From assembly GCA_001779925.1 (NCBI GenBank), contig MFEK01000010.1:19377-83376 (forward strand): DNA of 64,000 nucleotides. Direction: 5' to 3'. The position numbers were made by a program, and so were the translations under genes. Origin of the DNA: Candidatus Doudnabacteria bacterium RIFCSPHIGHO2_01_FULL_46_14 (GTDB lineage Bacteria; Patescibacteriota; Doudnabacteria; UBA920; 2-01-FULL-46-14). Positions 4,373-57,388 of the stretch are shown one piece after another (positions within the stretch are counted from its first letter, which is position 1; each line of letters begins with the position of its first letter). The notes below the pieces were generated by a model, which had not been told where the DNA came from, ran no database searches, and saw only the letters and a list, made by a program, of their open reading frames with translations.

Positions 4373-4411
4373 ATACGTAGGAAAGTTTAAATTTCCCTGT
4401 TCAAAGCTAAA

Positions 4412-7667: not shown

Positions 7668-7668
7668 A

Positions 7669-8076: not shown

Positions 8077-8079
8077 AAA

Positions 8080-8505: not shown

Positions 8506-8507
8506 GC

Positions 8508-9727: not shown

Positions 9728-9730
9728 AAG

Positions 9731-14811: not shown

Positions 14812-14840
14812 GTATTTGTTAATAAACTAATAGCTTGTTT

Positions 14841-15366: not shown

Positions 15367-15570
15367 ATGGCGATCATCATAAACATAGACGTGATGCTGG
15401 CCAAGCGGAAAATGAGCGTCACTGAACTTGCGGAAAAAGTCGGCATAACCATGGCAAATATATCTGTATTGAAAAATGGAAAGGCGCGAGCCATCCGTTT
15501 CTCAACCCTTGAGGCCATCTGCAAGGCTTTGGATTGCCAGCCCGGAGATATTTTAGAATTTAAAAATTAA
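15367..15570 (+). CDS. XRE/Cro-C1-type HTH transcriptional regulator (YozG-like)
   Basis: MAIIINIDVMLAKRKMSVTELAEKVGITMANISVLKNGKARAIRFSTLEAICKALDCQPGDILEF. Confidence 0.8.
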   Translation: MAIIINIDVMLAKRKMSVTELAEKVGITMANISVLKNGKARAIRFSTLEAICKALDCQPGDILEFKN

Positions 15571-15581
15571 TAACCTATTTT

Positions 15582-19385: not shown

Positions 19386-20879
19386 ATGGACAAATCTTCG
19401 GTCTTCTATCATTTCAAAAAGCACTACAAACCTGACCAGGTCAAGCTGCTTGAACGGGCTTATCAGTTCGCCTCACTGGCACACCAGGGACAAAAACGCA
19501 AATCCGGAGATGATTACATCATGCACTCTCTGGCTGTGGCCAATTACCTCGGAAACCATCTGCATATGGATATGGACACTGTAGTGGCAGGCATGCTACA
19601 CGATGTTCCGGAAGATACAAAAACTACCCTTCCGGAGATCCGTCAAAATTTCGGGCCGCAGGTGGCGTTTATGGTCGAGGGTATTACCAAGCTCGGAAAA
19701 ATCAAGCTACGAAACCAACGCGACGAAAACTATATTGAGACCCTGCGCAAAATGTTTTTGTCCATGGCCGCGGATATCCGCGTGGTGCTCATCAAGCTTG
19801 CAGACCGCCGCCACAACATGAAAACCATTGAGTTTCTCCCCGAAGAAAAACGAAAACGAATCGCCCGCGAAACTCTGGAGGTTTACGCGCCGATCGCCAA
19901 CCGCCTGGGAATGGGAGAGCTGACGGGCGAGCTGGAAGACCTGGCCTTTCCGGTGGTTTACCCCAAAGATTATGAATGGCTAGCCGGCCAGGTCAAAGAA
20001 CGCTATGAAGAAATGGCAATCTACGTGAAGCGCGTTCGTGATACCATTATAAAAAATTTCCACGAGGCGGGGATAAAATGGACTGATATTCACGGCCGCG
20101 CCAAACATCTCTATAGCCTTTATGAAAAAATCTTGCGTCCCAAATATGATCGGGACATTACAAAAATTTATGATCTGGTCGCCCTGCGCATCATCACGAA
20201 AAATCTGGAGGATTGCTATGCTACGCTCGGCGTCCTGCATTCCAAATACCGCCCTTTGCCGGGCCGTATCAAAGATTATATCGCCTTTCCCAAACCCAAC
20301 GGCTACCGCAGTATCCATACCACGGTCTTTGGACCCGAGGGCCGGGTGCTCGAGGTGCAGATTCGCACTGCGGAAATGCATTATGAGGCAGAATACGGAA
20401 TCGCAGCGCACTGGGCATATATTGAACACGGCAAACCAAAATGGGGTTACAAGATTCCCAAACAACTCGAATGGGTCACTCAGCTTCGCGATTGGCAAAA
20501 AGACATTGGCGGGAGTTCCGAGGAATTCATGGAAGCCCTGAAAATCGATTTTTTCAAAAACCGAATTTTTATTTTCACGCCCAAAGGCGAGGTCAAAGAC
20601 CTGCCCGAAGGGGCAACCACCCTCGATTTCGCGTTTGCGGTCCACACTGACCTCGGGCTCTATGCCATGGGCGCAAAAGTCAATGGAAAAATGGGCAAAC
20701 TCTCAGACGAACTTTCCAACGGCGATGTGGTGGAAATCGTCAAAGGCTCCAAGATCAATGTTTCCCGCGACTGGATGGGCGTGGCCCGCACCTCCAGCGC
20801 CCGCTCAAAAATAAAAGCCTACCTCAACCAAAACAACCAAGGCTGGGGCTTCCTGCCGGAATTTATCCGGAAAAAATAA
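19386..20879 (+). CDS. rel: (p)ppGpp synthetase/hydrolase, short Rel/SpoT homolog (HD + synthetase + TGS, no ACT domain)
   Basis: HD motif MLHDVPEDT; synthetase RIKDYIAFPKPNGYRSIHTTV; TGS IFIFTPKGEVKDLPEGATTLDFAFAVHTDLG. Confidence 0.85.
   Translation: MDKSSVFYHFKKHYKPDQVKLLERAYQFASLAHQGQKRKSGDDYIMHSLAVANYLGNHLHMDMDTVVAGMLHDVPEDTKTTLPEIRQNFGPQVAFMVEGITKLGKIKLRNQRDENYIETLRKMFLSMAADIRVVLIKLADRRHNMKTIEFLPEEKRKRIARETLEVYAPIANRLGMGELTGELEDLAFPVVYPKDYEWLAGQVKERYEEMAIYVKRVRDTIIKNFHEAGIKWTDIHGRAKHLYSLYEKILRPKYDRDITKIYDLVALRIITKNLEDCYATLGVLHSKYRPLPGRIKDYIAFPKPNGYRSIHTTVFGPEGRVLEVQIRTAEMHYEAEYGIAAHWAYIEHGKPKWGYKIPKQLEWVTQLRDWQKDIGGSSEEFMEALKIDFFKNRIFIFTPKGEVKDLPEGATTLDFAFAVHTDLGLYAMGAKVNGKMGKLSDELSNGDVVEIVKGSKINVSRDWMGVARTSSARSKIKAYLNQNNQGWGFLPEFIRKK
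20841..20879. repeat. direct repeat DR1 (39 bp, = last 12 codons + stop of rel)
   Basis: ggctggggcttcctgccggaatttatccggaaaaaataa; exact copy at 21535-21573. Confidence 0.9.
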
Positions 20880-20919
20880 GAACATTGACAGGACTGCCAA
20901 ACAAAATTAAACTAAAAAT

Positions 20920-21147
20920 ATGAAATTTACCCGTATTACAATCAATCCAGAAAAAATGGATGGCGTGCCCTGCATCAGGGATTTGCGTATTCCTGTAGCA
21001 ACAGTAGTGCAGATGACCGCTGAAGGCATGACTGCCCCAGAAATCATCAAGACTTTGCCTGATTTGCAGACGGAAGACGTTCGTGAAGCCTTGCAATATG
21101 CCGCAACCGCAGTGCAGGATCGCGTCATGCCCTATGCCCTGCCTTGA
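20920..21147 (+). CDS. DUF433 domain protein (putative antitoxin)
   Basis: 75 aa; ...[18 protein letters not shown]...; 4-bp overlap with DUF5615 gene. Confidence 0.7.
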
Positions 21148-21524
21148 TGAAATTTCTGATTGACAATGCGCTTTCTCCTCAAATCGCTGCTGGCCTGAAA
21201 AGCAGCGGTTTTGATGCTGTGCATGTACGTGATCGCCAAATGCAGTCCGCAACTGACGCGGATATTTTTGAATTCGCCAAATCCCAAAATCGAATCATTA
21301 TCTCCGCTGACACTGATTTTGGTAGCTTGCTCGCTTTGCGGCAAGAGATAAAGCCGTCCGTGATTCTGTTTCGGCGCGGAACACTTCGCCGTCCGCCAGC
21401 ACAACTGGCAATTTTGCTTGCCAATTTGCCAAAACTGAAAGAGTCGCTGACCAAAGGCTGTATTGTCATTCTAGAAAGCGGACGCATCAGGATCCGCCTC
21501 CTGCCTATCGGCGATAAGCTTTAG
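21144..21524 (+). CDS. DUF5615 (PIN-like) domain protein (putative toxin)
   Basis: [18 protein letters not shown]...[10 protein letters not shown]; classic partner of DUF433. Confidence 0.7.
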
Positions 21525-22367
21525 CTCACAAACTGGCTGGGGCTTCCTGCCGGAATTTATCCGGAAAAAATAACCGGCTCTTCCTCGCCCCTTGCGGGAG
21601 AGGATTGCAATGGCTGCCACCGACTCATCAGTGTTCATTTTTTTCAGCGCCGAAATAACATTGCGAAAATAGTTTGCTTCATCATAATTGTCCAAAAAGG
21701 CATCAACATTTTTCAAATCAACAATTTCTGCCAGGGCCGGATAAGGAACTCTGTCCTCATAAAATATTCGATTAAGGTACATTAGATTTTCGGGATTGTT
21801 TCCCATTTTTTGCACAACTGATGCGCAGGCCTGGTAAGCCGGTTTATTATCATATTTAGTCAGACCGTAAGAACCGGTTTCGTGCTTGCCAAATTTGACT
21901 AGCGATTCATGCGTGTTCATCAAAAAATCGCTTTTTGTTACCAAAGGATTGTCATCCTGCAAATCTTCAAGCAACTCGACTATTTTTTTAAAATCTATTT
22001 TGTCAAGCAAACTATTCATTTCTGTCAGCCACTGCTCCTCGGCAAACTCTCTCGATTCTGAATCTTGCGACCAGCTTAGCTTCTGTAATAACATTCTGCG
22101 CCTATTCCAATCTGTGGTGTCAGCAAGCTCGGCTTGGATATCATTCAGACTACTGGGTTCACTTTTTGCTTTCTCAATTAATTCCCGCCTCCTCTGCTCA
22201 ATCTCGGCCAGTCTTACTTGCTCACGCGCTCGGTATTCTTCTTCGCGTTTCCTCGATTCTTCCAACATGCGATCAAATTCTGGCGGACGACTATATATAG
22301 GTCGCCGCCCAGCAGATTCATTCTCTTTTTCAGAACCCGGATCATATCCTGGTATTTCTCTTCTCAT
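21471..22367 (-). CDS. hypothetical charged/coiled-coil protein; its C-terminus reads through DR2 into the TA cassette
   Basis: 298 aa, E/R/K-rich; last ~30 codons overlap DUF5615 gene and DR2 (..[13 protein letters not shown]..). Confidence 0.4.
21535..21573. repeat. direct repeat DR2 (39-bp exact duplicate of rel 3-prime end)
   Basis: Identical to 20841-20879; brackets the DUF433/DUF5615 cassette. Confidence 0.9.
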
Positions 22368-24541: not shown

Positions 24542-26069
24542 CGCTAGTAAAAATCAACAAATTTCTAGCTGGAAATTTTCGCAATCGCCAAAATAGGACG
24601 GCGTAATAAACAAAAATCCCTGCGACCGGCACGCCGAGCGCGACCTGAGCAAACGGGATTCGCGCGAAAAATTCCACCACCCAGATTTGAAATGCCAGAA
24701 TCCCCCAAAGCACAACAGCCAATATTTTCGCCACAGGTACATAAATCATACCGAGCACCCCGGCCGTAAGAGCCAAAAACATAGCATAAGGTACTGTCCA
24801 GAGGATCAGCACATTGACCACAATGGAAACAATAGAGAGGCGTTCAAAATAAAAGATGAGGAGAGGCAGAGCGAAAATTTGCGCAGCCATAGTGGAAGCC
24901 AGATTCTTGCGAAATTCCAAGATATTCGGCACCCATTGTAGTTTATTCTCAAACCATGAGCCAAGATAGATAAGCCCGGCTGTAGCCATGAATGAGAGCT
25001 GAAAACCCAAATCAAACCCCAGAATCTTGGGGTTTTCGAGTACCATAAGCGCAGCAACAAAGATCAGGGCATTCAGAGACACATAAATTCGTCCGACATT
25101 TAAAGCCGCAACCGCCAGCATGGCCATGACTGCCGCGCGAACCACAGACGCGTCCGCGCCGGTGATGACGACAAACGCGAGCACCAGCAAAAATGATAAA
25201 ACAAGGGCACTGCGCCGGCCTACATACTGCCGGGTTTTCAAAATATTCTGAGTAATAATCGACATATTATATCCAGAAATTACAATGATGTGGGATACAC
25301 CAACAGCAATCATAGCGTTTTTGAGATCTTCCGGAATCCTGTGCTTCACGCCGAGGATCAGGCCCTGGGCCAAAGCGTTATGCGGCTCTGGTAAAATTTG
25401 CGAGAGCACTCCCTGAAATCGATGCTTTATACTTAGCAGAGCCGCTTTCATCTTATTTCCTTGATCTTCCCCTATTTTTTCAATCTTTGGAAAACGCATC
25501 ACCGCATAAGTATCATAACGCGACAAATAATCTTTATAGGAAAACTCTTCGCTCACAAACGGCTCTTCGACTTTTCCTGAAAATTTTAATCTATCGCCGT
25601 ATTGATATTCCGGATATTTCCCGACATTCAACAAAATATTTCCAGTAAGCTCCCTCTCCTTACCCTCTTTCTCTTCCACTCCCCTCCCTTGCAGTGTCCG
25701 CCGCAGCCTTGCGCGGAGACTGGGAGGGGAGGGTGAAGTTACTTTCACTGTCAAATTCACCTTATCGCTCCTCACATCCGGCTCTTTCACTATTATCCCT
25801 TCCAGTTCAACTTCTTGCCCATAATATTTTCCAATAAAATTTTCTTGATCGGGAAAGCTCGCCTGATATCTTACCGCTCCAAAAAGCGCGACCAATCCCA
25901 AAAATCCCGCCAGCACAAACCTTTTATCACTCCACCAAATCGTAATTAGAATCAAAAAAAACATGGCCGCGATAGCCATGATATAGTAATTAACATACCT
26001 GCCCGCGCCCACCCCGGCCACAAAACTCAAACAGAAAAACAGAAAAATTTTAGATTTTTCGAATTTCAC
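24516..26069 (-). CDS. comEC: ComEC/Rec2 DNA-uptake channel (DUF4131 + competence domains), lacking the MBL domain
   Basis: Multi-TM 517 aa; ...GVSHIIVISGYNMSII...; repeat R4 in-frame in the N-terminal region. Confidence 0.7.
   Translation of the reverse strand: MKFEKSKIFLFFCLSFVAGVGAGRYVNYYIMAIAAMFFLILITIWWSDKRFVLAGFLGLVALFGAVRYQASFPDQENFIGKYYGQEVELEGIIVKEPDVRSDKVNLTVKVTSPSPPSLRARLRRTLQGRGVEEKEGKERELTGNILLNVGKYPEYQYGDRLKFSGKVEEPFVSEEFSYKDYLSRYDTYAVMRFPKIEKIGEDQGNKMKAALLSIKHRFQGVLSQILPEPHNALAQGLILGVKHRIPEDLKNAMIAVGVSHIIVISGYNMSIITQNILKTRQYVGRRSALVLSFLLVLAFVVITGADASVVRAAVMAMLAVAALNVGRIYVSLNALIFVAALMVLENPKILGFDLGFQLSFMATAGLIYLGSWFENKLQWVPNILEFRKNLASTMAAQIFALPLLIFYFERLSIVSIVVNVLILWTVPYAMFLALTAGVLGMIYVPVAKILAVVLWGILAFQIWVVEFFARIPFAQVALGVPVAGIFVYYAVLFWRLRKFPARNLLIFTSDVSQKAKI
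25677..25738. repeat. repeat family A, locus R4 (variant palindrome with 34-nt internal spacer) inside comEC
   Basis: cactcccctccc-ttgcagtgtccgccgcagccttgcgcggagactg-ggaggggagggtgaagt. Confidence 0.7.
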
Positions 26070-30061: not shown

Positions 30062-30190
30062 TTCCCTCCCCTTACCGGCGGTCCCCCGAAAGCGTAATCG
30101 CTTTCGGGGTAGACTTGAGGGGGAGGGACTGAGGGAGGGGTGTGGTATTGAAGTTTCACCCCCACCTTGCCTCCCCCATCAAGGGGGAGG
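30062..30190. repeat. repeat family A, locus R8 (inverted pair; first unit carries a nested 40-nt hairpin insertion)
   Basis: ttccctcccctt[accggcggtcccccgaaagcgtaatcgctttcggggtagac]ttgagggggagggactgagggaggggtgtgg ... tttcacccccaccttgcctcccccatcaagggggagg. Confidence 0.85.
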
Positions 30191-30201
30191 AATAAAATCA
30201 G

Positions 30202-30556: not shown

Positions 30557-30576
30557 GCCGTGTCAAGCCCTCTGAA

Positions 30577-30622
30577 TTTTCCCTCCCCTCAATGGGAAGG
30601 GATTGAGGGGAGGGGTGTATAA
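30577..30622. repeat. repeat family A, locus R9 (variant)
   Basis: ttttccctcccctcaatgggaagggattgaggggaggggtgtataat; its 3-prime end creates a TATAAT box 10 bp before the next gene. Confidence 0.75.
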
Positions 30623-35238: not shown

Positions 35239-38200
35239 GATTTATTATATTCCTGCCACGATTTAATTTTCAAGTCTTCCAATTTATAGGTCGTCAGAGC
35301 GCGGACAAAGGCGCGCGCGAGAAACAGATCCGTAAACAGTGGGGTGTTATTGTCCACGGTTGCCCGGCGAATGAGATGCCCGTCGGTAATGGTTGAGGCG
35401 ACATTACGCTGTTCATCAGGACTGCGCTCCGTCAGGTTAATCACAAACGCGACCTTTTTTTGGTTGATAAATTCCAGGACATTCAGCTTTCGCGATTCGT
35501 GGACTTTGTAGACTTTGGAGCATTTTACCCCGGATTTATTGAAAAAGTCGCACGTAGTATCAGTCGCGTAAATTTTAAATCCAGCTCTGAGAAGCGCTTT
35601 CGCGCTTTCCAAAAACCGTTTTTTGTTCATGATGCCGCCGAGGGACAAGAGCACGGCTTTTTTGTTGATAAACGGCACGGTAGCATAAACAGATTTGAGA
35701 AGGGCTTCGTCCGCATCATCACCAAAACACGCGACCTCGCCGGTGGAAGCCATTTCCACATGCAGGAGCGGATCCGCGCCTGCAAGCCTGGCAAAAGAAA
35801 ACTGCGGCGATTTTACTACAACGCTACTAGGATAAGGGATTTCAATCCTACGACTTTTACCATAGAACGAGGCCACGATCATTTCCGCAAAATTAACACC
35901 GGTGGCCTTGGAAAGAAGCGGAAAGGTTCGGGACGCGCGGAGGTTTGCTTCAATCACGTAAACCCGGTTGTCTTTGACCAAAAACTGCACGTTTAATGGC
36001 CCGGTGATGGTGAGGGCGCGAGCCAGGGCGGCCCCGACCTTCATGATCTTCTGTTCCGTGGAAGCAAAAACCCGCTGGGTCGGATAAACAATCGTCGCAT
36101 CTCCGGAATGCACGCCCGCATTTTCAATGTGTTCGGAGATAGCTTGCACCTGAATGCGGCCATTTTGCGCGACCGCGTCAAGCTCGATCTCCCGCGCGCT
36201 CGTGAAAAATTTGGAAATAGTCACAGGATGGGTCTTGTTAAGAGTCGTTGCTTTATTTACAAACCATTCCAGCTCGTGCTCATTGTAACAAACTGACATT
36301 GCCGACCCGGAGAGCACGTATGAGGGACGCACCAAAACCGGATAGCCCACCTCGCTTGCAAACTTTTGCGCCTCGGCCATATCCGTAAAACTGTTCCAGC
36401 GCGGCTGGGGGATGGCAAGCCTGTCTAGCAGCGCGGAAAATTTATTACGGTCTTCCGCCCGATCAATATTTTCGGCCGCGGTGCCGAGAAGTTTCGCCCC
36501 ATATTCAGAAAGAGCGTTGGCCAGGTTGTTCGGCGCCTGGCCGCCGACCGACACAACCACGCCTTCGGGTTTTTCAAAATCGAGAATCTCGGTCACTGTT
36601 TCAAATGACAGCTCCTCGAAATAGAGCCTTGCCGACATGTCGTAGTCCGTAGAAACTGTTTCCGGATTGCAATTAATAATGATCGACTGCCTGCCGTATT
36701 TCGGAAGCGCAAGCGCGGTATGGACGCACGACCAGTCAAACTCTACGGACGAACCAATATGATATGGGCCGGAACCCAAAACCACCACGCTTTTTTTACC
36801 AAGGGCCCTCACATCATGGTGCGAACCATTATAGGTCAAGTAAAGATAATTGGTTTTCGCCGGTACCTCGCCTGCCAGCGTGTCGATCTGAAATACCGAG
36901 GGCGTAACACGCAGTTTTTTGCGAAGCTTGCGGATCTCTGTTTCCGGCACATTCCTGATATGCGCTATGCGACGATCAGAAAACCCGAGTTGTTTGAGGT
37001 GCCAAAGCTCGTCTGTTTCCAGTTTCTTATTTCTGGCAAGTCCGAGCTCGGCCTCGACAATATTTTTAACGCGATAAAGAAACCATGGATCAATCCCAGT
37101 CAGAGCTTTGATTTTCCTGATCGGCACATTGCGTTTTATGGCTGAAGCCAGGGCAAATAGACGCTTTGGCGTGGGCACGCGCAAATAGCGCTCAAGCTCT
37201 TCCGGAGAAAAATTATTATCCGTTACGCCTTCCACACGGCCATGGAGCATGCGCACGGCTTTCTGCAGAGCCTCCTCAAACGTGCGGCCAACGGCCATAA
37301 CCTCGCCCACGCTCTTCATGGCACTGCCGATTTTTTCCTCGGCCCCGCGGAATTTTTCCAAATCCCAGCGCGGGATTTTCACTACTACGTAATCAAGCGC
37401 TGGTTCAAAAAAAGACTGGGTAACCTTTGTAACTTGATTCTGTACATCAAGAAGAGATTTTCCAAGGGCAAGTTTCGCGGCTACGTATGCGAGCGGATAA
37501 CCCGTGGCTTTCGAAGCCAAAGCCGAAGATCGGGAGAGGCGGGCGTTGACCTCTATAACTTCAAAATCAAATCCACCCCCACCCCGCCTCCCCCCTCGAG
37601 GGGGAGGAATCCTTCTGTACTTCCCTCCCCTTGAGGGGGAGGGACTAAGGGAGGGGTGAGGGTTTACCGCATATTGAACGTTGCACTCGCCGACTATTCC
37701 CAAAGAACGCACGATTTTTATGGAAGCCTCGCGCAACAAATGATATTCGTCATTGGTCAGGGTCTGGCTCGGCGCCACCACAATCGAATCACCGGTATGG
37801 ATGCCGAGGGGATCGAGGTTTTCCATGTTGCAGACAGTAACGCAATTGTCATAGGCATCCCGAACCACTTCGTATTCAAGCTCTTTGTAGTGATGTAGAT
37901 ATTTTTCTACGAGAATTTGCGAGGAGATAGCGAGCGCGTCTCTTGCAATCTTTTCTAATTCCTCCCTACTCCGCGCCATCCCAGATTTTTGTCCACCGAG
38001 CGCATAAGCCGCTCTGACCATGACCGGGTAGCCAATATTTTTGGCAATCTTTAACGCCTGCGGTAAATTTGTAGCCGCCTTGCTTTTCGGCACGGAAATA
38101 TTTATTTTTTTCAAATGATCAGCAAATTTCTGACGATCTTCAGTAAGAACAATGGCCTCAATAGGGGTTCCGAGCACTGCTACGCCATATTTTTTCAGAA

Positions 38201-38546: not shown

Positions 38547-39646
38547 TCCAATTTCTTTATAAATTCATCGAAAATCCAGCCAGTGTCGAGCGGGCCGGGG
38601 TGAGACTCGGGATGAAACTGCACAGACATGAACGGCAAATGCTCGTGGATAATCCCTTCGTTGGTTTTGTCATTGACATTCACAAACCAAGCCCGAAAAC
38701 CTTTAGGGATTTTTTTGACCGCAAAACCGTGATTTTGCGTGGTGAGATAAGCGCGCTTAGTACCGACCAGAATGGCCCCGTGGTTTTGCCCGCGGTGGCC
38801 GAATTTTAGCTTATAAGTATCTCCGCCAGCGGCCAGAGTGAGAATCTGGTTACCAAGACAAATACCGAGAATGGGAATTTTTTTTTCTAAAGCAATTTTG
38901 GTAATCGCAATCGTTCTCGTGGCCATCTTCGGATCGCCCGGGCCATTGGAAATAACTATACCGTCAAACTTTAACCGCTTGGCAAAAATATCATAGTCCC
39001 AAGGCACAACTGTCACGCGGATTTTTCTTTTGACCAGTTCGCGGATAATATTCTGTTTTACGCCGCAATCGAAAACCACAACTGTCTTTCGTCCGGAACC
39101 GGATTTTACTATTCGTTTTGTGGAGACCTCTGCAACCAAGTTACGCAAATTAGGATCTGCAAAATCACCCCCACCTAACCTCCTCCCTCGAGGGGGAGGA
39201 ATCCGCGATTTTCCCCTCCCTGGAGGGGAGGGGTTGGGGGAGGGTGAAAATGAGATTTTGCCTAGCATTACACCCTTTTCCCGCAATTTTTTCGTAAGCG
39301 CTCTGGAGTCTTTGATTTCCAGGGCTGGGATATTTTCCGCAGCTAGCCACTGCGCTAACGTCCGCCGCGAAGAATAATGCGACGGCGTATCTATATAATT
39401 AGATACTATCAATCCCGAAACTTTGATGCTGGCTGATTCCCAAACTTTTTTGTCTGGCACGCCATAGTTCCCGACCAGCGGATAAGTGAGTACCAAAATC
39501 TGCCCTTGATACGACGGATCAGTGAGGCTTTCCGGATATCCAACCATTCCCGTGGCAAAAACCACCTCACCAGAAACACTCCTCCGCGCACCGAAGCTGG
39601 TCCCGATTAATTCGGTATTATCTTCTAAAATTAGGCGTCCTAGCAT
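38543..39646 (-). CDS. carA: carbamoyl-phosphate synthase small (glutamine amidotransferase) subunit
   Basis: GATase triad region ...GICLGNQ...; R12 in-frame (..SPSPNPSPPGRGKSRIPPPRGRRLGGGDF..). Confidence 0.9.
   Translation of the reverse strand: MLGRLILEDNTELIGTSFGARRSVSGEVVFATGMVGYPESLTDPSYQGQILVLTYPLVGNYGVPDKKVWESASIKVSGLIVSNYIDTPSHYSSRRTLAQWLAAENIPALEIKDSRALTKKLREKGVMLGKISFSPSPNPSPPGRGKSRIPPPRGRRLGGGDFADPNLRNLVAEVSTKRIVKSGSGRKTVVVFDCGVKQNIIRELVKRKIRVTVVPWDYDIFAKRLKFDGIVISNGPGDPKMATRTIAITKIALEKKIPILGICLGNQILTLAAGGDTYKLKFGHRGQNHGAILVGTKRAYLTTQNHGFAVKKIPKGFRAWFVNVNDKTNEGIIHEHLPFMSVQFHPESHPGPLDTGWIFDEFIKKLE
39165..39250. repeat. repeat family A, locus R12 (inverted pair) in-frame within carA
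   Basis: tcacccccacctaacctcctccctcgagggggagg...ttcccctccctggaggggaggggttgggggagggtgaaaa. Confidence 0.85.
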
Positions 39647-39739
39647 AAATTTCTAATTGCTCTAATTTCTAATTGACCTAAATAATGACCAAATCCCAAT
39701 TTCCCAATATTAATCATTGGTGCTTGTTTAGAAATTAGG
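39647..39739. repeat. AT-rich repeat family B, copy X (carA upstream region)
   Basis: atttctaattgctctaatttctaattgacctaaataatgaccaaat...; related copies at 46853-46968 and 47377-47414. Confidence 0.5.
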
Positions 39740-41016: not shown

Positions 41017-42186
41017 CTATTGATTATCATGTATTTCTAACGGGGCGAGTCTATGATTTGCTCCAACAACTTCTTTAACTGACCGAAATCCATCAGCTTC
41101 CAATAATTTTACCAAACCCCGTTTAATTTTTTTCGGCAACGAAGGACCTTCATAAATCATACCCGTATAAATTTCCACGAGGCTTGCGCCAGCGCGGATC
41201 TTTTCGTACGCATCCTCAGCGGAAAAAATCCCCCCTGCTCCGATTATCGGTACTCGGCCTTCAAGCTTTTTGTAAAGATAACCGATCACTTCAGTAACTC
41301 TCTTGGCAATCGGGCGGCCAGACAAACCGCCCCCGCCCATGCCCTCAGTGGCAGCGGTATTAGTCGCAATAACCCCGTCAATCTTTGTTTCCAAAACAAT
41401 CTCTGCAATATCATCAAGCTCACCGTCAGTCAGATCAGGTGAGATTTTGAGAAGCAAAGGCCGCCACCCCCACCTAACCTCCTCGCCTCGCCTTCGCTCG
41501 GACGAAGCGGGCCCCCTCAAAGGGGAGGAATTCGTTTGTATTTCCCTCCCCTCGAGGGGGAGGGCTGGGGAGGGGTGATTCAATTTCTGTAATTCCATAA
41601 GCAAATTCCTCAGCTCCTCTTTCCCCTGTAATTCCCGCAGTCCCGGTGTATTTGGAGAACTAACATTGACCACCACATAGTCGGCCAAGGGCGCTAATTC
41701 TGTAAATCCCGTGGCATAATCGCGCAGAGCCTCCTCGTTCGGCGTAATTTTATTTTTTCCTAGATTGACCCCGATCACAAAATCGCGCTTCTCAAGTCTT
41801 TTCAAATTTTTCGCCACTGCCATTGCGCCCATGCTGTTAAATCCCATCCGGTTGATGATCGCCTTATCCGCATCCAGACGAAATAGTCGTGGTTTGGGAT
41901 TGCCCGGCTGCGGCTCAGGGGTCACAGTCCCCACTTCAATAAACCCAAACCCGAGCGCGGCCATGAACCGCGCAAAGCCGCCGGATTTATCATAGCCAGG
42001 TGCAAGGCCGATCGGATTTTTGAATCTGACTCCAAAGACTTCAGTCTCAAGCGATGGATGTTCGTACCGAAACAACGGCGAAAACACTTCGGAAAGTCCC
42101 GAAAAATTCCTGCCCAAAGCCGCCACAGCATTGTGCATGGTTTCTGGCTGGATAGTAAATAAAATCGGCCGCAAAAGTTTATACAT
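41017..42186 (-). CDS. pyrD: dihydroorotate dehydrogenase (class 2-like, with N-terminal extension)
   Basis: FKNPIGLAPGYDKSG..., FIEVGTVTPEPQPGNPKPRLFRL; R13 in-frame. Confidence 0.85.
   Translation of the reverse strand: MYKLLRPILFTIQPETMHNAVAALGRNFSGLSEVFSPLFRYEHPSLETEVFGVRFKNPIGLAPGYDKSGGFARFMAALGFGFIEVGTVTPEPQPGNPKPRLFRLDADKAIINRMGFNSMGAMAVAKNLKRLEKRDFVIGVNLGKNKITPNEEALRDYATGFTELAPLADYVVVNVSSPNTPGLRELQGKEELRNLLMELQKLNHPSPALPLEGREIQTNSSPLRGPASSERRRGEEVRWGWRPLLLKISPDLTDGELDDIAEIVLETKIDGVIATNTAATEGMGGGGLSGRPIAKRVTEVIGYLYKKLEGRVPIIGAGGIFSAEDAYEKIRAGASLVEIYTGMIYEGPSLPKKIKRGLVKLLEADGFRSVKEVVGANHRLAPLEIHDNQ
41464..41578. repeat. repeat family A, locus R13 (inverted pair; first unit with nested hairpin insertion) in-frame within pyrD
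   Basis: cacccccacctaacctcctcgcc[tcgccttcgctcggacgaagcgg]gccccctcaaaggggagg...tttccctcccctcgagggggagggctggggaggggtga. Confidence 0.85.
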
Positions 42187-46328: not shown

Positions 46329-46369
46329 TTCACCCCTCCCTCAATCCCTCCCCCTCAAGGGGAGGGAAG
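46329..46369. repeat. repeat family A, locus R14; supplies the last codons and stop of gene 46355..46852
   Basis: ttcacccctccctcaatccctccccctcaaggggaggg; minus-strand reading gives ...RFLPSP-stop. Confidence 0.85.
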
Positions 46370-46852
46370 AAAACGGGGATCATATCGCTTTACTAACTCG
46401 AAACTCCCAAACATCACTCCTGCATAAAACAAATCCCCGAGGAGAGTATTACGGAAAAATGGGAGGGCGTTTAGGTAGGATTGGATTTGGCCGGAAAGAT
46501 CATGGCTGTACATAGTTGGCTCGTAAAGGAAAACTAAGTTTGTAATTAGATAAAAGAGAGCAGAGCTGGCCACTGTACCGCCAATCATATTTAGCACACT
46601 CTTATTATTTCTCAGCCATAAACCAATAAGCCCTGACAAAATAAAACTGCTGTAAACCGTGGCTCGCGACTGCCACGAATCAAATCCAATAAAATAATCT
46701 GAAACGACCATGGCGGCGACTGGTACAAGCAATGCAAATTTTTTATTGAGATAAGTGCCGCCGAACAATGCGATAGCAGAAATAGGAGCGAAGTTTGCTG
46801 GGTGAGGCAGGAATCTTAAAATGGCACCAATGAGGACTAAAATATACTCCAT
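46355..46852 (-). CDS. small multi-TM membrane protein (DUF6580-like)
   Basis: ...LRFLPHPANFAPISAIALFGGTY... N-terminus; 5 TM. Confidence 0.45.
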   Translation of the reverse strand: MEYILVLIGAILRFLPHPANFAPISAIALFGGTYLNKKFALLVPVAAMVVSDYFIGFDSWQSRATVYSSFILSGLIGLWLRNNKSVLNMIGGTVASSALFYLITNLVFLYEPTMYSHDLSGQIQSYLNALPFFRNTLLGDLFYAGVMFGSFELVKRYDPRFLPSP

Positions 46853-46968
46853 ATAGAATTTCTAATTGTTCTAATTGACCTAATTTCTAAACAATGACCA
46901 ATGCACAATTTCTAAATTTAGGAATTGGGATTTATTTAGGTCAATTAGAAATTAGAATAATTAGAAAT
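46853..46968. repeat. AT-rich repeat family B, copy Y (116-bp imperfect palindrome)
   Basis: tttctaattgttctaattgacctaa...ttaggtcaattagaaattagaataattagaaa (arms are reverse complements). Confidence 0.55.
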
Positions 46969-47376
46969 TTACTTCTGCACTTTCTCCACTACCCACTCGA
47001 TGATATCGCCCTTTTTGGTTTCAAGCTTGTCCGCGCCAACCTGGGAATCCTTGCCGTTTATGTAGAGCTTCCAAAAATGCTCGGCATCAGGCTTCAGTCC
47101 GCCAATCGATTCCACCATCACGCCAAAATCATACTGCTTAAATTCCACCTTATCGTTTACCGCGTTTTTGAGAAGCTGAAAGGCGTTCGCGCCCTCTTTG
47201 CCTGGATAACGGACGTAATCAGATAAAACAATAGTTTTTCCAGCAAGAGCGGGCGCAACTGGATAAAGCCCCTGCTGATAATTTACAGGTGTACGGTTTT
47301 GATACCAATAAACTCCGCCCCCAACTGCGGCAAGTACCAAAACGATAATTAGAATCTTCTTCCATTGTTTATTCAT
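46969..47376 (-). CDS. DUF4430 (transcobalamin-like, cobalamin-binding) domain protein with N-terminal TM anchor
   Basis: ...FWKLYINGKDSQVGADKLETKKGDIIEWVVEKV C-terminal DUF4430 signature. Confidence 0.55.
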   Translation of the reverse strand: MNKQWKKILIIVLVLAAVGGGVYWYQNRTPVNYQQGLYPVAPALAGKTIVLSDYVRYPGKEGANAFQLLKNAVNDKVEFKQYDFGVMVESIGGLKPDAEHFWKLYINGKDSQVGADKLETKKGDIIEWVVEKVQK

Positions 47377-47414
47377 TTGGAATTTATTTAGAAATTAGAA
47401 TAATTAGTAATTTA
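47377..47414. repeat. AT-rich repeat family B, copy Z
   Basis: aatttatttagaaattagaataattagtaattta, near-identical to right arm of copy Y. Confidence 0.5.
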
Positions 47415-47966
47415 CTAGTAATCTATTCCTCTCTCCGCAAGCCGACCCTGGTAATACGGATGCTTGATCATTTTCATTTCCGTAACCAGATCCGCCGCTT
47501 CTAATAACTCATTATATTTATTGTGCCCGGTAAGGGCAAGAGGCACTATATGCTCACGTGCCAAATCCATTATCCCCTTTACATCCGCGACCGTTAAAAG
47601 CTCCACCTCAATCGCAGAAATCAGCTCGTCTGCGATAACCAGGTCATAGTCCCCTGATTTTAAACTTAATTGTAGCCACTCTAAACCCTCTTGAGCTGCA
47701 GTTTTATGGATCTCTTTGTCCTTGGTATCGCCCAAAATGCCCACAAAGCCCCTGCCCAGGATTTTCACAGTTATGCCGGGAATGGATTTGAGAATTTCGA
47801 TCTCACTCGACAATGGCCACTCGCCTGATTCGGTTGCAGTCGCGGCTTTAACAAACTGGCAAAACAGCACGCGCTTTCCCGCACCCGCCGCGCGCACTGC
47901 CAACCCCACCGCGGCCGTAGTCTTGCCTTTCCCATCACCAATGTAAATGATATTCAAGCCCTTCAT
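47415..47966 (-). CDS. cobO: ATP:cob(I)alamin adenosyltransferase (CobO/BtuR/CobA type)
   Basis: IIYIGDGKGKTTAAVGLAVRA P-loop, ...DLVIADE...; start at MKGLNII. Confidence 0.8.
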   Translation of the reverse strand: MKGLNIIYIGDGKGKTTAAVGLAVRAAGAGKRVLFCQFVKAATATESGEWPLSSEIEILKSIPGITVKILGRGFVGILGDTKDKEIHKTAAQEGLEWLQLSLKSGDYDLVIADELISAIEVELLTVADVKGIMDLAREHIVPLALTGHNKYNELLEAADLVTEMKMIKHPYYQGRLAERGIDY

Positions 47967-49531: not shown

Positions 49532-49909
49532 TCATAAATTTAGCTTGTGAATTAAATCATCAAAGACACCGGAAGTATTGTGCATGATATCACGATTACT
49601 GTATCTAACAATCTGGCAACCTAGTGATTTCAGATAATTTTCTCTCATAATATCATTCCCCATTGTGGAGGCTTCTGCATGCGTATCGCCATCAATCTCG
49701 ATAATATATTTTTTTTCTGGACAATAAAAATCGACTACATAATCTCCAATTGCATGCTGGCGCCGGAATTTTAAATTATAGAACTGCTTGCCCCCAACTT
49801 TGGTCCAGAATATTTGTTCTGCAGGGGTCATATCGCGACGCAATCTTCTGCGTATGGAAATGGTTTTTGGAGAACCTGATTTTGGCCCGCGAGATTGATT
49901 GAATTTCAT
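49532..49909 (-). CDS. DUF559 (Vsr-like endonuclease fold) protein, paralog 2
   Basis: ...HAIGDYVVDFYCPEKKYIIEIDGDTH...LGCQIVRYSNRDI... Confidence 0.7.
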   Translation of the reverse strand: MKFNQSRGPKSGSPKTISIRRRLRRDMTPAEQIFWTKVGGKQFYNLKFRRQHAIGDYVVDFYCPEKKYIIEIDGDTHAEASTMGNDIMRENYLKSLGCQIVRYSNRDIMHNTSGVFDDLIHKLNL

Positions 49910-49943
49910 AACCTCCCCTAACCCCTCCTCACGAGGAGGGGAA
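49910..49943. repeat. repeat family A, locus R16 (abuts start codon of DUF559 gene 2; inverted relative to R15)
   Basis: aacctcccctaacccctcctcacgaggaggggaa. Confidence 0.75.
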
Positions 49944-52519: not shown

Positions 52520-52602
52520 TTCCCCTCCCTCGAGGGGAGGGGTAAGGGGAAGGTGATATTTAATTTTCCACCCCCACCTAACCTCCCCCCTCAAGGAGGA
52601 GG
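52520..52602. repeat. repeat family A, locus R18 (inverted pair, tails inward) between nrdR and nrdJ
   Basis: ttcccctccctcgaggggaggggtaaggggaaggtga...ttccacccccacctaacctcccccctcaaggaggagg. Confidence 0.85.
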
Positions 52603-52615
52603 AATACATACACAA

Positions 52616-53511: not shown

Positions 53512-54672
53512 ATGAAAAACTATTCGCCATTTCTGGACTTTGCGCCTACAGTCGTGCTCAAGCCCGAGGCAGTTGCGGAACGAATGAAGTCTAACCCTTT
53601 TGACCTGTTCGATGATGCCAACCATTTTCCAGAGGTCAGAGAAAAAATCGTCGGCCACTTAAAATCCGGCTTCGGAGGGCCCTATCGAAGCCTTTTACAA
53701 TATGAATGGGCCGAAAGCCGAATCCTTGGACTGTTTCACGACGGTGATACTCTTTGGCGGCCCTTGCTGGAATGGTATTGCTCAGGCTACGGAAGTAAAG
53801 ATGTAGGATCTGTACGGCCAATCGAGTTTGCAATCAGCATGGCCAGAGACCAACCCTACCTAATTACAGAAATAACTAAGGTAGTTTGCCCCAACGCGAA
53901 GTATAACAACTGCTATTGGAACTCTCCTTCCATGAAAGTGTTTTTAGACGACTGCTGGGCAAGTCTGATTCGTGACGTCGAGGCTGGACATGAATCCAAG
54001 ACAACCATCGCGACTTTTCAGGCAATCAGACGAGTCGCCCGCCTTCTCATCGAGGTCAAAGACACCACATGGCTGCCAAAGCTCGCGGAAATACGAGACA
54101 TGCTCAAAAACATCCATCCGAGATGGATACCGCCGACAGGAAAGGACGAATTTGAGGTACCGATAGTGGGTGGTGTCATTACTCACACCATTCGCATTCT
54201 CGAGGAGGAAGCAGCGGATTGGATGAAAGACCCGCTGGCGGAAGGGATTCGGGAGAGAATCTACGCCAAACCCGAACCCAATGTCATAGTCAATGTGGAA
54301 TACCCGGAAAAATGGCAGGCAGGTTCACCTATGCTTCTCTTAGTTCAAGTGATCTTTAAAAACGTTGCCCCATCGCGTCCCGACCTTCCGAAAATCATCA
54401 TGGAAGATTTTACAGCTGCTATTCGCACGGACGGCTTTGAAAAAGTGTCTGCAGGGGGTCCCTGGGAAAAGCTTCGAGGATACAACTTTCGGTTCCTTGG
54501 ACAAGGCTTTTATCAAGCCTTCGGAGAAAAGACTCCTGAGGTTTTCGAATCAGCATTTACGCTAGTTCCCACTGGCGGCATTAACCGCTTCCACCTATGC
54601 TTAGTATACGAAGACTCGCGCCATGCAGTGTGGGATGTAGGAAAAACCGCTGGTTATGTACTCTGCGAATAA
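53512..54672 (+). CDS. hypothetical protein (386 aa)
   Basis: Strong SD CAGGAGG; followed by strong terminator; no family recognised. Confidence 0.5.
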   Translation: MKNYSPFLDFAPTVVLKPEAVAERMKSNPFDLFDDANHFPEVREKIVGHLKSGFGGPYRSLLQYEWAESRILGLFHDGDTLWRPLLEWYCSGYGSKDVGSVRPIEFAISMARDQPYLITEITKVVCPNAKYNNCYWNSPSMKVFLDDCWASLIRDVEAGHESKTTIATFQAIRRVARLLIEVKDTTWLPKLAEIRDMLKNIHPRWIPPTGKDEFEVPIVGGVITHTIRILEEEAADWMKDPLAEGIRERIYAKPEPNVIVNVEYPEKWQAGSPMLLLVQVIFKNVAPSRPDLPKIIMEDFTAAIRTDGFEKVSAGGPWEKLRGYNFRFLGQGFYQAFGEKTPEVFESAFTLVPTGGINRFHLCLVYEDSRHAVWDVGKTAGYVLCE

Positions 54673-54684
54673 ATGAACAACAAA

Positions 54685-54751
54685 CACATGTCGAGATTGG
54701 AGGATCTCGACATGTGTGATTTTTTAAAAAATCCCGACTTTTGGTCGGGAT
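54685..54751. terminator. tandem hairpins: perfect 13-bp stem (cacatgtcgagat/atctcgacatgtg) + T-run, then atcccgac-ttttg-gtcgggat; bidirectional
   Basis: Direct reading. Confidence 0.65.
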
Positions 54752-54758
54752 TAATTAT

Positions 54759-54800
54759 TTCATCTTCTTCCTGATAAACGCCGGGGTGTCGAATTCTTCG
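54759..54800. repeat. degenerate duplicate of the ftsZ 3-prime end (39/41 identity, 1 indel, to 56235-56276)
   Basis: ttcatcttcttcctgataaacgccggggtgtcgaattcttcg vs ttcatcttcttcctgataaacgcggggatgtcgagttcttcg. Confidence 0.8.
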
Positions 54801-54801
54801 G

Positions 54802-55221
54802 TTACTTTTGTGGAAACATGAAGGAAAAAGAGCTAGGGTGAACGATTGGAATGTTTCGAAATTGTCTCAGTCGAAGCAAATGTTTGTCCATTGATACTAT
54901 TAAATTTGCTCCTGCGGCTAAAGCGCATTCCAAAATTTTGTCATCATCTGGATCGTCCTTGATTACCTGTAAGGTTTCCTTCGGAATAACTTGGTGAATA
55001 TATTCATCGATAATAATCCGCAGATTTGTAACTGTCCTGTGGTCTGCCAATTTCTCATTTACCCAAATTTGTAATTTTTCTTCGATTTCGTCTTTGATGT
55101 CAGGAGAAATAAATACTATATAATTAAAATCCGGGCTGAAAATTTCCCGAAACATCCGAAAAACGAATCCGCCTTCCCGTAATGCGGCCAGATAAATATT
55201 TGTGTCTAGTACAACGCGCAA
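54802..55221 (-). CDS. PIN-domain (VapC-like) toxin
   Basis: MRVVLDTNIYLAAL...; acidic residues D6, E?, D typical PIN. Confidence 0.75.
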   Translation of the reverse strand: MRVVLDTNIYLAALREGGFVFRMFREIFSPDFNYIVFISPDIKDEIEEKLQIWVNEKLADHRTVTNLRIIIDEYIHQVIPKETLQVIKDDPDDDKILECALAAGANLIVSMDKHLLRLRQFRNIPIVHPSSFSFMFPQK

Positions 55222-55224
55222 AGC

Positions 55225-55464
55225 TTAACCAAAATACTTTTCTACGTCATCATCAGTTTTGATCCCTAGCTTTTCAAATGCCGGGGCAAAGCCCTTTTGA
55301 ACCTGTGACCATTGGGACAAAAACAGCTGATAACGCAGGGTTTCTTTTACATATTGACTCACGGGGATATCCTGCTCTTTGGCATACCGAATCAGTTCCC
55401 GCCGTAAGGATTTTGGCAATGATACACTTAAAATTTCGGTCTTTTCTCGTTTTATACTTGGCAT
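55225..55464 (-). CDS. ribbon-helix-helix (CopG/VapB-like) antitoxin
   Basis: 79 aa, ...ILSVSLPKSLRRELIRYAKEQDIPVSQYVKETL... RHH pattern; 3 bp upstream of PIN gene. Confidence 0.65.
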   Translation of the reverse strand: MPSIKREKTEILSVSLPKSLRRELIRYAKEQDIPVSQYVKETLRYQLFLSQWSQVQKGFAPAFEKLGIKTDDDVEKYFG

Positions 55465-55475
55465 AACTTAAAAAT

Positions 55476-55520
55476 TATTATTCTGTAATAATACTATATT
55501 ATTCTGTAATAATTGTCAAG
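55476..55520 (-). promoter_or_regulatory. putative TA promoter/operator: two direct repeats TATTATTCTGTAATAAT 21 bp apart overlapping TTGACA-18-TAGTAT (minus strand)
   Basis: Repeats at 55476-55492 and 55497-55513; -35 rc of 55515-55520, -10 rc of 55491-55496. Confidence 0.5.
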
Positions 55521-55632
55521 GGCAAGAAAAGAGCTCGATCCATAATGGTCGAGCTACCTGTCCATCCGGTCAGGTTCGGTTAAATCACAACAGAGTCTGT
55601 GCCTCTCGTCTGATAGACTTTCACGCAGATAT

Positions 55633-56103
55633 TTAAAACTGCTTGGCAGGACGCAGCATCGCTTCGAGTTTCTCCCTTTCATTGTTTAACCCCCAAGTCG
55701 CCATTGCTGCGGCGCAATCATAGATCATGTAAGGGAATCTCTTGCCCCAAACACCCTCGCCTATCACTGACACGAAAGTTTCGAGCGCGATCTGTTTCGC
55801 CTTTATTTTCGCTACCAGGTAAATAAGATCATCCATAGCATCAGGAGGAAAATCATCCACTGCTGCCGTTAAGATCATTTGACGAACTGCCTCGCAGAAA
55901 GCTTGCCGTGCCTCCGTAGACAGTCTATCAAACAGTGTTTTGAGGGCATCGAGATTCGATTCATACCCCCATATGCCAATTTCCCGGAAGCCGAAAGGGT
56001 CGCGAAGTCTGACACTGAGGTAATACTGGCGGCGCAAGCCACGATCTAGCCATGACTTGAAGTCATCGGCCTGATATCCGTTTAGCTCTAACAAAGTTGC
56101 CAT
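55633..56103 (-). CDS. hypothetical protein (156 aa), GC-rich
   Basis: Between ftsZ and the PIN/RHH pair; no family recognised. Confidence 0.4.
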   Translation of the reverse strand: MATLLELNGYQADDFKSWLDRGLRRQYYLSVRLRDPFGFREIGIWGYESNLDALKTLFDRLSTEARQAFCEAVRQMILTAAVDDFPPDAMDDLIYLVAKIKAKQIALETFVSVIGEGVWGKRFPYMIYDCAAAMATWGLNNEREKLEAMLRPAKQF

Positions 56104-56230
56104 ACTTGCCTCCTGTCTATTGCACTAGTCGGTACATAGCTTTGCATTGCTCCTCCTAACGCGAAATCATAAGAACAACTAAAAATAGCACTTCTGTGCT
56201 ATTTTGTAAAGCCGTCGCCGGATAATAATT

Positions 56231-57388
56231 CTACTTCATCTTCTTCCTGATAAACGCGGGGATGTCGAGTTCTTCGTTTTCCTCGTCCTCTTCGTCCTCA
56301 TCCACGGCTTTGGGGGCATAGGTCGAACGGGCTGGGGTTTCCGAGATCTCCTGAGTAACGCCAAAGCCGAGGGGCGCAGAGATCGGCGCCATCCGCTGCT
56401 GGGGGATAGCTTTTCGCGTGCGCGCCACCTCGTCAAAACCCGTGGCGATCACGGTAATGCGCACCTCGTCTGACATGGCTTCGTCAATCACAGCCCCAAA
56501 AATAATCTTGGCATCGCTGTCCACGCTCTTAGTGATAATCTTAGCTGCTTCATCAACCTCATACATGCCGAGGTCCTTGCCACCAGTAATGTTAAACAGC
56601 ACGCCACGCGCCCCGTCAATGGAAACCTCAAGAAGCGGTGAATCAATGGCTTGTTTAGCTGCCTCAATGGCCCGGTTTTCGCCTGAGCCGCGGCCAATGC
56701 CCATGAGTGCCGAGCCGCTATCCGTCATCACGCTTTTCACATCCGCAAAATCTACATTGATGAGGCCCGGGGTCGTCACCATATCGGCAATGCCCTGCAC
56801 GCCTTGCCGCAGAACATCATCCACGGTGCGAAACGCGTCGAGAAGCGAAGTCTTTTTATCAATAATCTGCAAAATGCGGTCATTGGGGATGATAATGATT
56901 GTATCCACGCTGGACTTGAGCTCCTCGAGCCCTTTTTCTGCCAACTCGCGGCGCTTGGCTCCCTCGAATGCAAAAGGCTTCGTTACCACTGCCACTGTCA
57001 GGATGCCTTCTTCTTTGGCCAGCTCGGCAACCACCGGAGCCGCTCCCGTGCCAGTGCCACCGCCCAAGCCGCAAGTTACGAACACCATGTCAGCGCCATG
57101 CAAAACTTCTAAAATCTCTTCCTTGTTTTCTTCCGCGGCGGCGCGGCCCACATCCGGATTCATACCAGCGCCCAAACCACGCGTAGCTTGTTTGCCAATC
57201 TGAACCTTTCGGTCAGCTTTGGAATGGTGAAGCGCCTGGGCATCAGTGTTGATCGCCACAAACTCAACGCTTTGCAGACCTGCCGTAATCATGCGGTGAA
57301 TCGCGTTATGGCCCGAGCCTCCCACGCCAATGACCTTAATGCGGGCAATGGTCTCGATTTTTGGTTTTAATTCGGTGGATTTCGGCAT
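56231..57388 (-). CDS. ftsZ: cell-division GTPase FtsZ
   Basis: [17 protein letters not shown] tubulin signature, conserved C-terminal [11 protein letters not shown] peptide; start at MPKSTEL. Confidence 0.95.

Follow-up and report, generated by a model that had tools for sequence, protein, structure and literature searches.

A toxin-antitoxin islet bounded by a duplicated ftsZ end in a Candidatus Doudnabacteria genome, and its possible insertion by the host

The genome of Candidatus Doudnabacteria bacterium RIFCSPHIGHO2_01_FULL_46_14, an uncultured groundwater bacterium of the Candidate Phyla Radiation (CPR, Patescibacteria) known from an aquifer metagenome, carries an acquired islet of 1,427 bp directly behind the stop codon of ftsZ. 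We analyzed this islet in a 64-kb stretch of contig MFEK01000010.1 (hereafter, the window). The islet comprises two independent transcription units, both oriented as ftsZ: a predicted toxin-antitoxin (TA) operon of a ribbon-helix-helix (RHH) protein and a PIN_3 protein, and a unit with an ORFan gene of 156 amino acids (aa). The last 15 codons of ftsZ and a stop codon are found on both sides of the islet, and related duplications of gene ends accompany inserts at other genes. Our preferred account, held with modest confidence, is that incoming cassettes were inserted by host-mediated illegitimate or short-homology recombination, with staggered junctions that duplicated the gene end and no requirement for a cassette-encoded or site-specific enzyme.

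The islet is flanked by a 48-nt direct repeat (54756-54803 and 56232-56279, spaced by 1476 nt), the copies of which are identical at 43 of 48 positions without a gap. The original prediction had reported such a repeat with 39/41 identity and one indel; the repeat was confirmed and the indel was not. An identical core of 23 nt occurs exactly twice in the window against an expectation of 0.00 (100 shuffles), and gapped local alignment of the two flanks yielded z = 27.7 relative to shuffles, with no significant extension of the similarity past the stop codon. Both copies retain the ftsZ frame and a stop codon. As the gene end is present on both sides, the C-terminal peptide of FtsZ, which in the FtsZ family binds FtsA, remains intact. 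The five differences between the copies are Leu/Phe, Ile/Thr, a silent Pro, a silent Lys, and TAG/TAA; that is, three of the five are silent or stop-to-stop. In a comparison of 156 FtsZ tails, the C-terminus in use matched the consensus, and the displaced copy deviated at two residues, including a Thr that is rare at the D-I-P position. The displaced copy is predicted to be untranslated; its frame of 25 codons contains no in-frame start codon, and no canonical slippery heptamer was seen for a frameshift from the PIN gene into it. The intrinsic terminator behind it (54722-54752) is probably the original ftsZ terminator, now closing the TA operon.

In approximately 20 contigs, built by several assemblers from at least 10 independent samples, the locus was 99.8-100% identical, indicating that an assembly artefact is excluded and that the insert is fixed in the sampled population. 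A chance match (the 23-nt core being expected 0.00 times), an artefact (at least 10 samples, assembled independently, giving the same region), or a template repeat of a diversity-generating retroelement (DGR) can be considered effectively refuted as explanations of the second copy. A real DGR does yield a near-copy of a gene 3' end in a related genome, L013, but there is no reverse transcriptase near ftsZ in the window, and only two of the five differences involve an adenine of the displaced copy. A DGR at ftsZ was rejected because no reverse transcriptase lies nearby and the differences are not adenine-specific. In L013, another Doudnabacteria genome, the DGR is located directly downstream of ftsZ (7474-9922), with the variable region at the end of a 201-aa gene, the template at about 8395-8510, bAvd at 8522-8914 (minus strand), and the reverse transcriptase at 9104-9922. 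This locus was rejected as an insertion on account of its RVT_1 and bAvd genes and of differences at template adenines.

The RHH and PIN_3 pair is, judged from its sequence, a predicted type II TA operon, which places it among ordinary VapBC-type modules, in their PIN_3 branch. In the PIN protein, the acidic residues D6, E45, D90, D93, and D112 were invariant across 23 homologs. The 79-aa protein matched Pfam CopG_antitoxin with E = 4.8e-4 and 21.3 bits, under the gathering score of 28 bits, while a profile of eight antitoxin homologs retrieved, among solved RHH proteins, the CopG-family protein 9kkd (E = 9e-4), SvtR, ArtA, VapB26, and ORF56. Only 3 nt separate the end of the antitoxin open reading frame (ORF) from the PIN start, and the same pair of genes was present at all eight homologous loci. 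As in VapBC-type operons, two small genes are adjacent with the antitoxin first, the PIN protein has the conserved acidic residues, the antitoxin is of the RHH type, and palindromic operators lie over the promoter. In contrast, the islet toxin belongs to Pfam PIN_3 / TIGR00305 and not to the classical VapC family PF01850, and its antitoxin reaches RHH families only under the Pfam cut-off or via a profile. These family and profile matches, together with the repeat, bear out the proposal that a PIN/RHH cassette and a further gene were inserted behind ftsZ, at its 3' end, alongside a copy of the ftsZ terminus that has diverged slightly. PIN relatives in viral contigs showed only 34-35% identity.

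Palindromic operators two helical turns apart over a promoter are the standard layout of antitoxin autorepression. Here, each of the two operator repeats contains the palindrome ATTATT-ACAG-AATAAT, and the repeats overlie the promoter spacer, the -10 box, and the start region. The 16-nt palindromic operator core had two matches against 0.04 expected. This layout is consistent with putative autoregulation. Of the features originally proposed for it, the two 17-nt repeats 21 nt apart were found, and the arrangement of operator and promoter is conserved in seven homologous cassettes; the promoter spacer was counted as 17 rather than 18 nt.

The other unit of the islet starts approximately 10 nt behind the ftsZ stop codon, as indicated by DNA homology to a module of contig L181. 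This is the only contig with a homolog of the 156-aa protein (77% protein identity, at an unrelated locus), and the DNA homology spans the promoter region. From its sequence, the hairpin at 56182-56205 with its T-run may now terminate ftsZ. Family and profile library searches gave no family assignment for the 156-aa protein, the predicted structure of which (pLDDT 87) is an all-alpha helical repeat with generic structural neighbours only, and no insert protein was matched in defence-system libraries. Relative to L181, the window has approximately 47 extra nt (56104-56160) between the first ribosome-binding site (RBS) and ATG (TAGGAGGAGCAATG) and the RBS and ATG in use, as if a short stretch around the translation start had been duplicated.

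The RHH-PIN module appears to be of foreign, horizontally acquired origin. Its GC content is 0.373, compared with 0.479 for the window and 0.547 for ftsZ (0.36-0.40 versus 0.62 for ftsZ at third codon positions), and homologous cassettes have 0.34-0.40 in hosts of 0.40-0.51. Cassettes were found in seven distinct contexts: ftsZ twice, PMT_2, trmD, a GT2 gene, dnaJ/M23, and a PBP gene. Besides the window cassette behind ftsZ, these are L182, between His_Phos_1 and a convergent PMT_2 gene (PIN 65% and RHH 76% identity); L183 and L186, between trmD and a pseudouridine synthase gene; L184 and L185, in the order ftsA-ftsZ-70aa-RHH-PIN-upp; L187, behind a GT2 gene; L188, between dnaJ and a convergent M23 peptidase gene; and L189, behind a PBP gene. 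The PIN protein closest to that of the window (65%) is in the L182 cassette at a different locus, indicating that the RHH-PIN family has moved. The promoter and the proximal operator palindrome are common to seven homologous cassettes, with the -35 box invariant in all seven; the proximal palindrome also occurs in L182, L183, L184, L186, L187, and L188, and the pair spaced by 21 nt also occurs in L187. In L183, L186, and L189, the -35 box of the cassette is fused in frame to the upstream host gene, whose final codons and stop (L-D-K-stop) thus come from the cassette. Additionally, a second PIN_3 gene with RHH_1 was seen in L184 (8821-9469) and a ParE-like pair in L186 (4995-5450), suggesting that TA cassettes are common in these small genomes.

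Gene-end duplicates were also found around other inserts. Within the window, the 3' end of rel is repeated exactly over 39 nt on either side of genes for DUF433 and DUF5615/PIN_10 proteins (Table 1), in agreement with the claim that the ftsZ and rel insertions share one architecture. In L182, a repeat of the PMT_2 3' end (40-45 nt, 80% identical, z = 12.4) is found on both sides of the cassette, which is oriented opposite to its target; the displaced copy reads KGDIFVDKYQVS and stop, compared with KGDIYVDQYQISN and stop. In L186, a decayed copy of the trmD end of approximately 33 nt starts 5 nt behind the PIN stop codon (z = 8.9). An unrelated cargo was identified in L045 (2019-3310), where an exact 53-nt duplicate of the ftsA 3' end surrounds an insert of 1,186 nt between ftsA and ftsZ. 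This insert contains an IS200-like Y1_Tnp (RAYT-like) transposase gene, a small membrane ORF, and three copies of a 25-29-nt sequence resembling repetitive extragenic palindromes (REP), both direct and inverted. Across these cases, including ftsZ, the repeat lengths are 33, 39, 40-45, 48, and 53 nt.

Screens for such duplicates covered 1.57 Mb, with 1,095 ORFs in an ungapped search with 45-nt windows and 1,264 ORFs in a gapped search. In the ungapped screen, duplicates with the second copy outside any ORF were obtained with 3'-end windows only; all matches of start, middle, and quartile windows fell within other ORFs and were paralogs or internal repeats. In the gapped screen, 12 matches of 3' ends scored at least 17, compared with one for reversed queries and five for gene starts against upstream DNA. 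Matches in L059 and L041 were rejected as insertions because they are tandem paralogs, and those in L110, L024, and L015 because they are short tandem copies lacking cargo.

At rel, the displaced copy overlaps the 3' end of a convergent 298-aa ORF (21471-22367, minus strand). This ORFan reads through the displaced repeat and stops within the DUF5615 toxin gene, so that the insert encodes the final 20 residues. In an insert-free locus, the ORF would end in KPQPWLFWLR and a stop codon and would overlap the rel 3' end. A Rel protein of 499 aa, P0134, is approximately 90% identical to that of the window. The ends of rel (20855-20879; PEFIRKK and stop) and ftsZ (56231-56257; PAFIRKKMK and stop) match at 15 of 21 nt, including TTTATC-GGAA-AA, a likeness that might be coincidental or might stem from a weak target preference or from a peptide motif common to both proteins.

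In the account that we favour, the RHH-PIN pair would belong to a family of low-GC, "promoter-to-stop-codon" cassettes that occurs in CPR bacteria and lands against the 3' ends of varied host genes. Incoming DNA would be joined by illegitimate or short-homology recombination, and the position of the two target junctions 33-53 nt apart would result in duplication of the gene end. In compact genomes, the only survivors would be events that leave the flanking genes whole, and an addictive TA pair may guard the insert against loss through recombination between the flanking repeats. In one variant, the segment duplicated would be identical at first and the displaced copy would decay afterwards; the exact rel and ftsA repeats and the off-consensus displaced copy of ftsZ support this variant. 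In a second variant, treated below, the copies would be donor and recipient alleles united by homology-facilitated illegitimate recombination, for which the surplus of silent differences and the cassette linked to ftsZ in L184 speak.

Family scans of the insert proteins and of 26 further ORFs of the window detected no recombinase or transposase, and the insert ends have no inverted repeats. The ftsZ, PMT_2, and trmD repeats are mutually unrelated and have no attachment-site (att) core in common, and the cassette ends share the promoter only. Target-derived repeats without a core and of 33-53 nt, with neither inverted repeats nor a recombinase, argue against a dedicated site-specific enzyme. 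Microhomologies were found at junctions, namely ATTGA at the left junction of L186 and AAC at the right junction of the window. The window encodes ComEC (24516-26069), with DprA on the same contig, and competence is regarded as widespread among Patescibacteria (PMC12455944).

Several points weigh against host-mediated insertion. No flanking repeat was detected by flank alignment at four of seven cassette loci, and L183, L184, L187, L188, and L189 show none. In L184, the closest relative, a homologous RHH-PIN pair follows ftsZ but is not bracketed by a repeat, and this could reflect an old ftsZ linkage or a site preference, neither of which is predicted by host-mediated insertion. The enrichment of silent changes among the copy differences (3/5) also fits donor and recipient alleles. 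Moreover, we know of no well-characterised enzymology for a short-junction illegitimate event that duplicates 33-53 nt, and these repeat lengths are within the range of another process: att sites of integrase-borne elements in Crenarchaeota measure 29-69 bp, with a median of 45 (PMC6563490). Finally, all contigs with the exact FtsZ, PIN, or 386-aa protein (the last encoded by the next gene) carry the insert, and no empty site was found among them. Relatives are too thinly sampled to provide one: a single population is represented, the 90% cluster of this FtsZ has a single member, FtsZ scans of genome and metagenome contigs gave at most 65% identity, and the best relative, reached through the PIN search, has 72% FtsZ identity. 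As a result, the direction of the event (insertion here and not deletion elsewhere) is deduced from composition and the repeat. The comparison with strains lacking the insert, suggested in the original prediction, thus returned no variant and does not refute the idea.

These att-like lengths lead to site-specific integration in trans, in which a non-autonomous mini-element would have been inserted by a tyrosine recombinase encoded elsewhere, with the repeats as attL and attR and with a new end for the gene delivered by the element. We consider this quite unlikely. Repeats of 39-53 nt are typical of att sites, frame and stop are kept in both copies, and the homologous cassette lies downstream of ftsZ in L184 as well; 3'-distal insertion in protein genes with a stop codon supplied by the element is documented (PMC6563490). 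Integrative elements at the 3' ends of tRNA or protein genes with attL and attR are known, and their integrase-less derivatives include cis-mobilisable and cryptic integrated elements (PMC6563490). They share with the cases described here direct repeats of approximately 40-50 nt, one of which forms the functional target end, an intact target, and cargo of foreign composition. However, the inserts here are only 0.7-1.4 kb, there is no conserved att core, and the cassette family is flanked by target-derived repeats of varying length and often by none. Scans of the insert proteins and of 26 further ORFs in the 64-kb window revealed no integrase. Furthermore, within one cassette family the repeats at ftsZ, PMT_2, and trmD are unrelated and the orientation to the target varies, the cassette ends lack a conserved core, the L184 copy at ftsZ has no repeat, and the left junction of L186 falls within the cassette's own -35 box. 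A possible integrase acting in trans fits the family-wide data worse than host-mediated insertion does. The same data bear on the original suggestion of a recurrent mechanism that targets the 3' ends of essential genes. Recurrence was supported by L182, L186, and L045, whereas targeting was not, considering the missing recombinase, terminal repeats, and att core and the loci without repeats. PMT_2 is not an obvious essential gene, and the same picture could result from plain illegitimate recombination or from selection acting on a compact genome.

Alternatively, the cassette could have arrived already linked to ftsZ by homology-facilitated illegitimate recombination (HFIR), which we regard as unlikely. 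Donor DNA would have paired via ftsZ, and its far end would have been joined illegitimately 45 nt upstream of the recipient stop codon; the end in use would be donor-derived and the displaced copy would be the recipient's original end. HFIR, homologous at one end and illegitimate at the other, is established in naturally competent bacteria (PMC3240628), and it shares with our cases short foreign segments beside conserved genes, junction microhomology, and no element-encoded enzyme. The presence of ComEC and DprA, the RHH-PIN pair downstream of ftsZ in L184, and the displaced copy being contiguous with the terminator are in line with it, as are the silent or stop-to-stop differences and the peptide ends of the L182 copies given above. 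Most targets are also conserved housekeeping genes (ftsZ, rel, trmD, and ftsA), which offer homology between diverged genomes. On the other hand, the rel repeat is identical at 39 of 39 positions, and the upstream junction is itself illegitimate in L186, L183, and L189, as the host gene takes its last codons from the cassette promoter; both junctions look illegitimate at several cassette loci. The off-consensus copy is the displaced one and not the one in use, and decay after duplication fits at least equally well. The claim that the ftsZ insertion is older because its duplicate has diverged is plausible, as the displaced copy is two residues off consensus, but the copies may equally have been donor and recipient alleles that were never identical. 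Known experimental HFIR events usually delete recipient DNA and do not duplicate 33-53 nt.

A third possibility is a pre-existing tandem duplication of the ftsZ tail, with cargo that later fell between the copies, in which case the repeat would be uninformative on the insertion step. Copies of the ftsZ tail without cargo do occur 46-99 nt downstream of ftsZ in three CPR genomes (L024 with three copies, L015, and L075). Yet the cargo-less copies are only 27-30 nt and follow a conserved spacer motif not seen in the window, and a tandem duplication would be required separately for rel, PMT_2, trmD, and ftsA. In addition, the displaced copy elsewhere lies 0-10 nt behind the last stop codon of the cargo and the copy in use ends at its first base, which fits a single event. 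We therefore consider this possibility very unlikely. The cargo-less copies themselves, of the last 27-30 nt of ftsZ, are located at 7130-7275 in L024, 7180-7310 in L015, and 7070-7145 in L075. Those of L024 are in tandem with a 60-nt period. Each extra copy is preceded by TTCGGCG-GG-AAG, which is able to pair with CCCGCC of the copy, and the second copy of L075 keeps PAFLRQRN and stop despite six synonymous codon changes.

Other known systems were compared with the islet. The TA cassettes of chromosomal integrons are likewise small and promoter-bearing, with a coding region that ends at the recombination boundary; in contrast, the repeat here is a copy of a host gene end with a plain terminator hairpin and not an attC-like imperfect palindrome. 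An integron gene cassette was rejected because there is no attC-like palindrome behind the PIN gene and no integron integrase among the window ORFs scanned. A transposon or insertion sequence with target-site duplication was rejected because the insert has no transposase and no terminal inverted repeats, and the duplication is 33-53 nt. We found no published description of TA cassettes bounded by variable gene-end duplicates, within a literature coverage that is incomplete.

CPR genomes are tiny and tightly packed, and, to our knowledge, little is known about their routes of gene gain. The repeated pattern seen here is one in which small, putatively self-regulated TA cassettes, and no fewer than one cargo of another kind, adjoin the ends of core genes (ftsZ, rel, trmD, and ftsA), with a short gene-end duplicate that leaves the host gene whole. 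We tentatively raise the possibility, doubtful at present, that CPR bacteria possess a distinct, undescribed route of gene gain by recombinase-free duplicative insertion of cassettes, chiefly TA pairs, into the last 30-50 nt of housekeeping genes, with addictive cargo shielding the insert. If a defined host recombination pathway is involved, it would explain how accessory genes enter essential-gene operons without damage, and the gene-end duplicate would be a signature for finding and dating acquisitions in metagenomes. If ordinary illegitimate recombination and selection are responsible, the islet would still be a clean, well-bounded example of an acquired TA islet.

Table 1. Features of the ftsZ islet, its surroundings, and the rel companion locus in window coordinates.
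Feature	Position	Strand	Details
ftsZ, intact target gene	56231..57388	-	385 aa from ATG at 57388; Pfam Tubulin 175 bits, FtsZ_C 127.5 bits
Repeat copy in use	56232..56279	-	last 15 codons of ftsZ plus stop TAG 56231-56233
Promoter-like site of 156-aa gene	56182..56210	-	TTTACA-17-TATTTT; overlaps hairpin 56182-56205 and T-run
156-aa ORFan	55633..56103	-	own strong RBS
Terminator of 156-aa gene	55525..55555	-	hairpin and U-tract; RNA fold AGCUCGACCAUUAUGGAUCGAGCU then CUUUUCU
Sigma-70-type TA promoter	55491..55519	-	TTGACA 55519-55514, 17-nt spacer, TAGTAT 55496-55491
Two exact 17-nt operator repeats	55476..55513	-	55497-55513 and 55476-55492; 21 nt start to start
RHH-type antitoxin, 79 aa	55225..55464	-	N-terminal ribbon-helix-helix; conserved C-terminal tail GIKTDDDVEKYFG
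PIN_3 toxin, 139 aa	54802..55221	-	Pfam PIN_3 50.5 bits (cut-off 27); NCBIfam TIGR00305 50.6 bits (cut-off 29.15)
Displaced repeat copy	54755..54803	-	stop TAA 54755-54757; starts 1 nt behind PIN stop
Intrinsic terminator	54722..54752	-	9-bp stem AUCCCGACC / GGUCGGGAU and U6; fold z = -2.8
Convergent 386-aa ORFan	53512..54717	+	own terminator 54684-54717; beyond repeat-bounded insert
rel companion case	20841..21573	+	exact 39-nt repeat of rel 3' end, 20841-20879 and 21535-21573; z = 32.9
rel cargo			DUF433 20920-21147; DUF5615/PIN_10 21144-21524

The ftsZ gene ends an array of the usual order, S21-YqeY-ftsA-ftsZ, and is followed downstream by the convergent 386-aa gene, nrdR, and a class II ribonucleotide reductase gene. 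The FtsZ (OGE79037.1), PIN, RHH, 156-aa, and 386-aa proteins correspond to NCBI OGE79037 to OGE79033. The 386-aa gene, which has a host-like GC content of 0.49 and one homolog only anywhere, had been considered as a possible part of the island; its position outside the repeats and on the opposite strand, its own terminator, and its GC content place it outside.

A GC-rich, REP-like intergenic palindromic element of approximately 40 nt (TTCCCTCCCCTTGAGGGGGAGGGA..GAGGGAGGGGTG) also recurs across the window in both orientations; its copies number more than 20, and none lies at the ftsZ or rel insertion junctions. Its sites include 2509-2564, 4277-4373, 17753-17856, 30103-30195, 30565-30621, 37568-37663, 39160-39258, 41489-41589, 46329-46386, 49909-49943, and 52520-52607. 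AT-rich inverted repeats of 57 nt (39646-39702 and 46915-46971, 86% complementary) surround a 7.2-kb pyrimidine-biosynthesis block, and related AT-rich direct repeats are found at 46945-46973 and 47388-47416. In addition, tandem paralogs of 176 and 172 aa share a start stretch of 81 nt (14819-14899 and 15560-15640), which is 80% identical and contains a palindrome centred on GGATCC.

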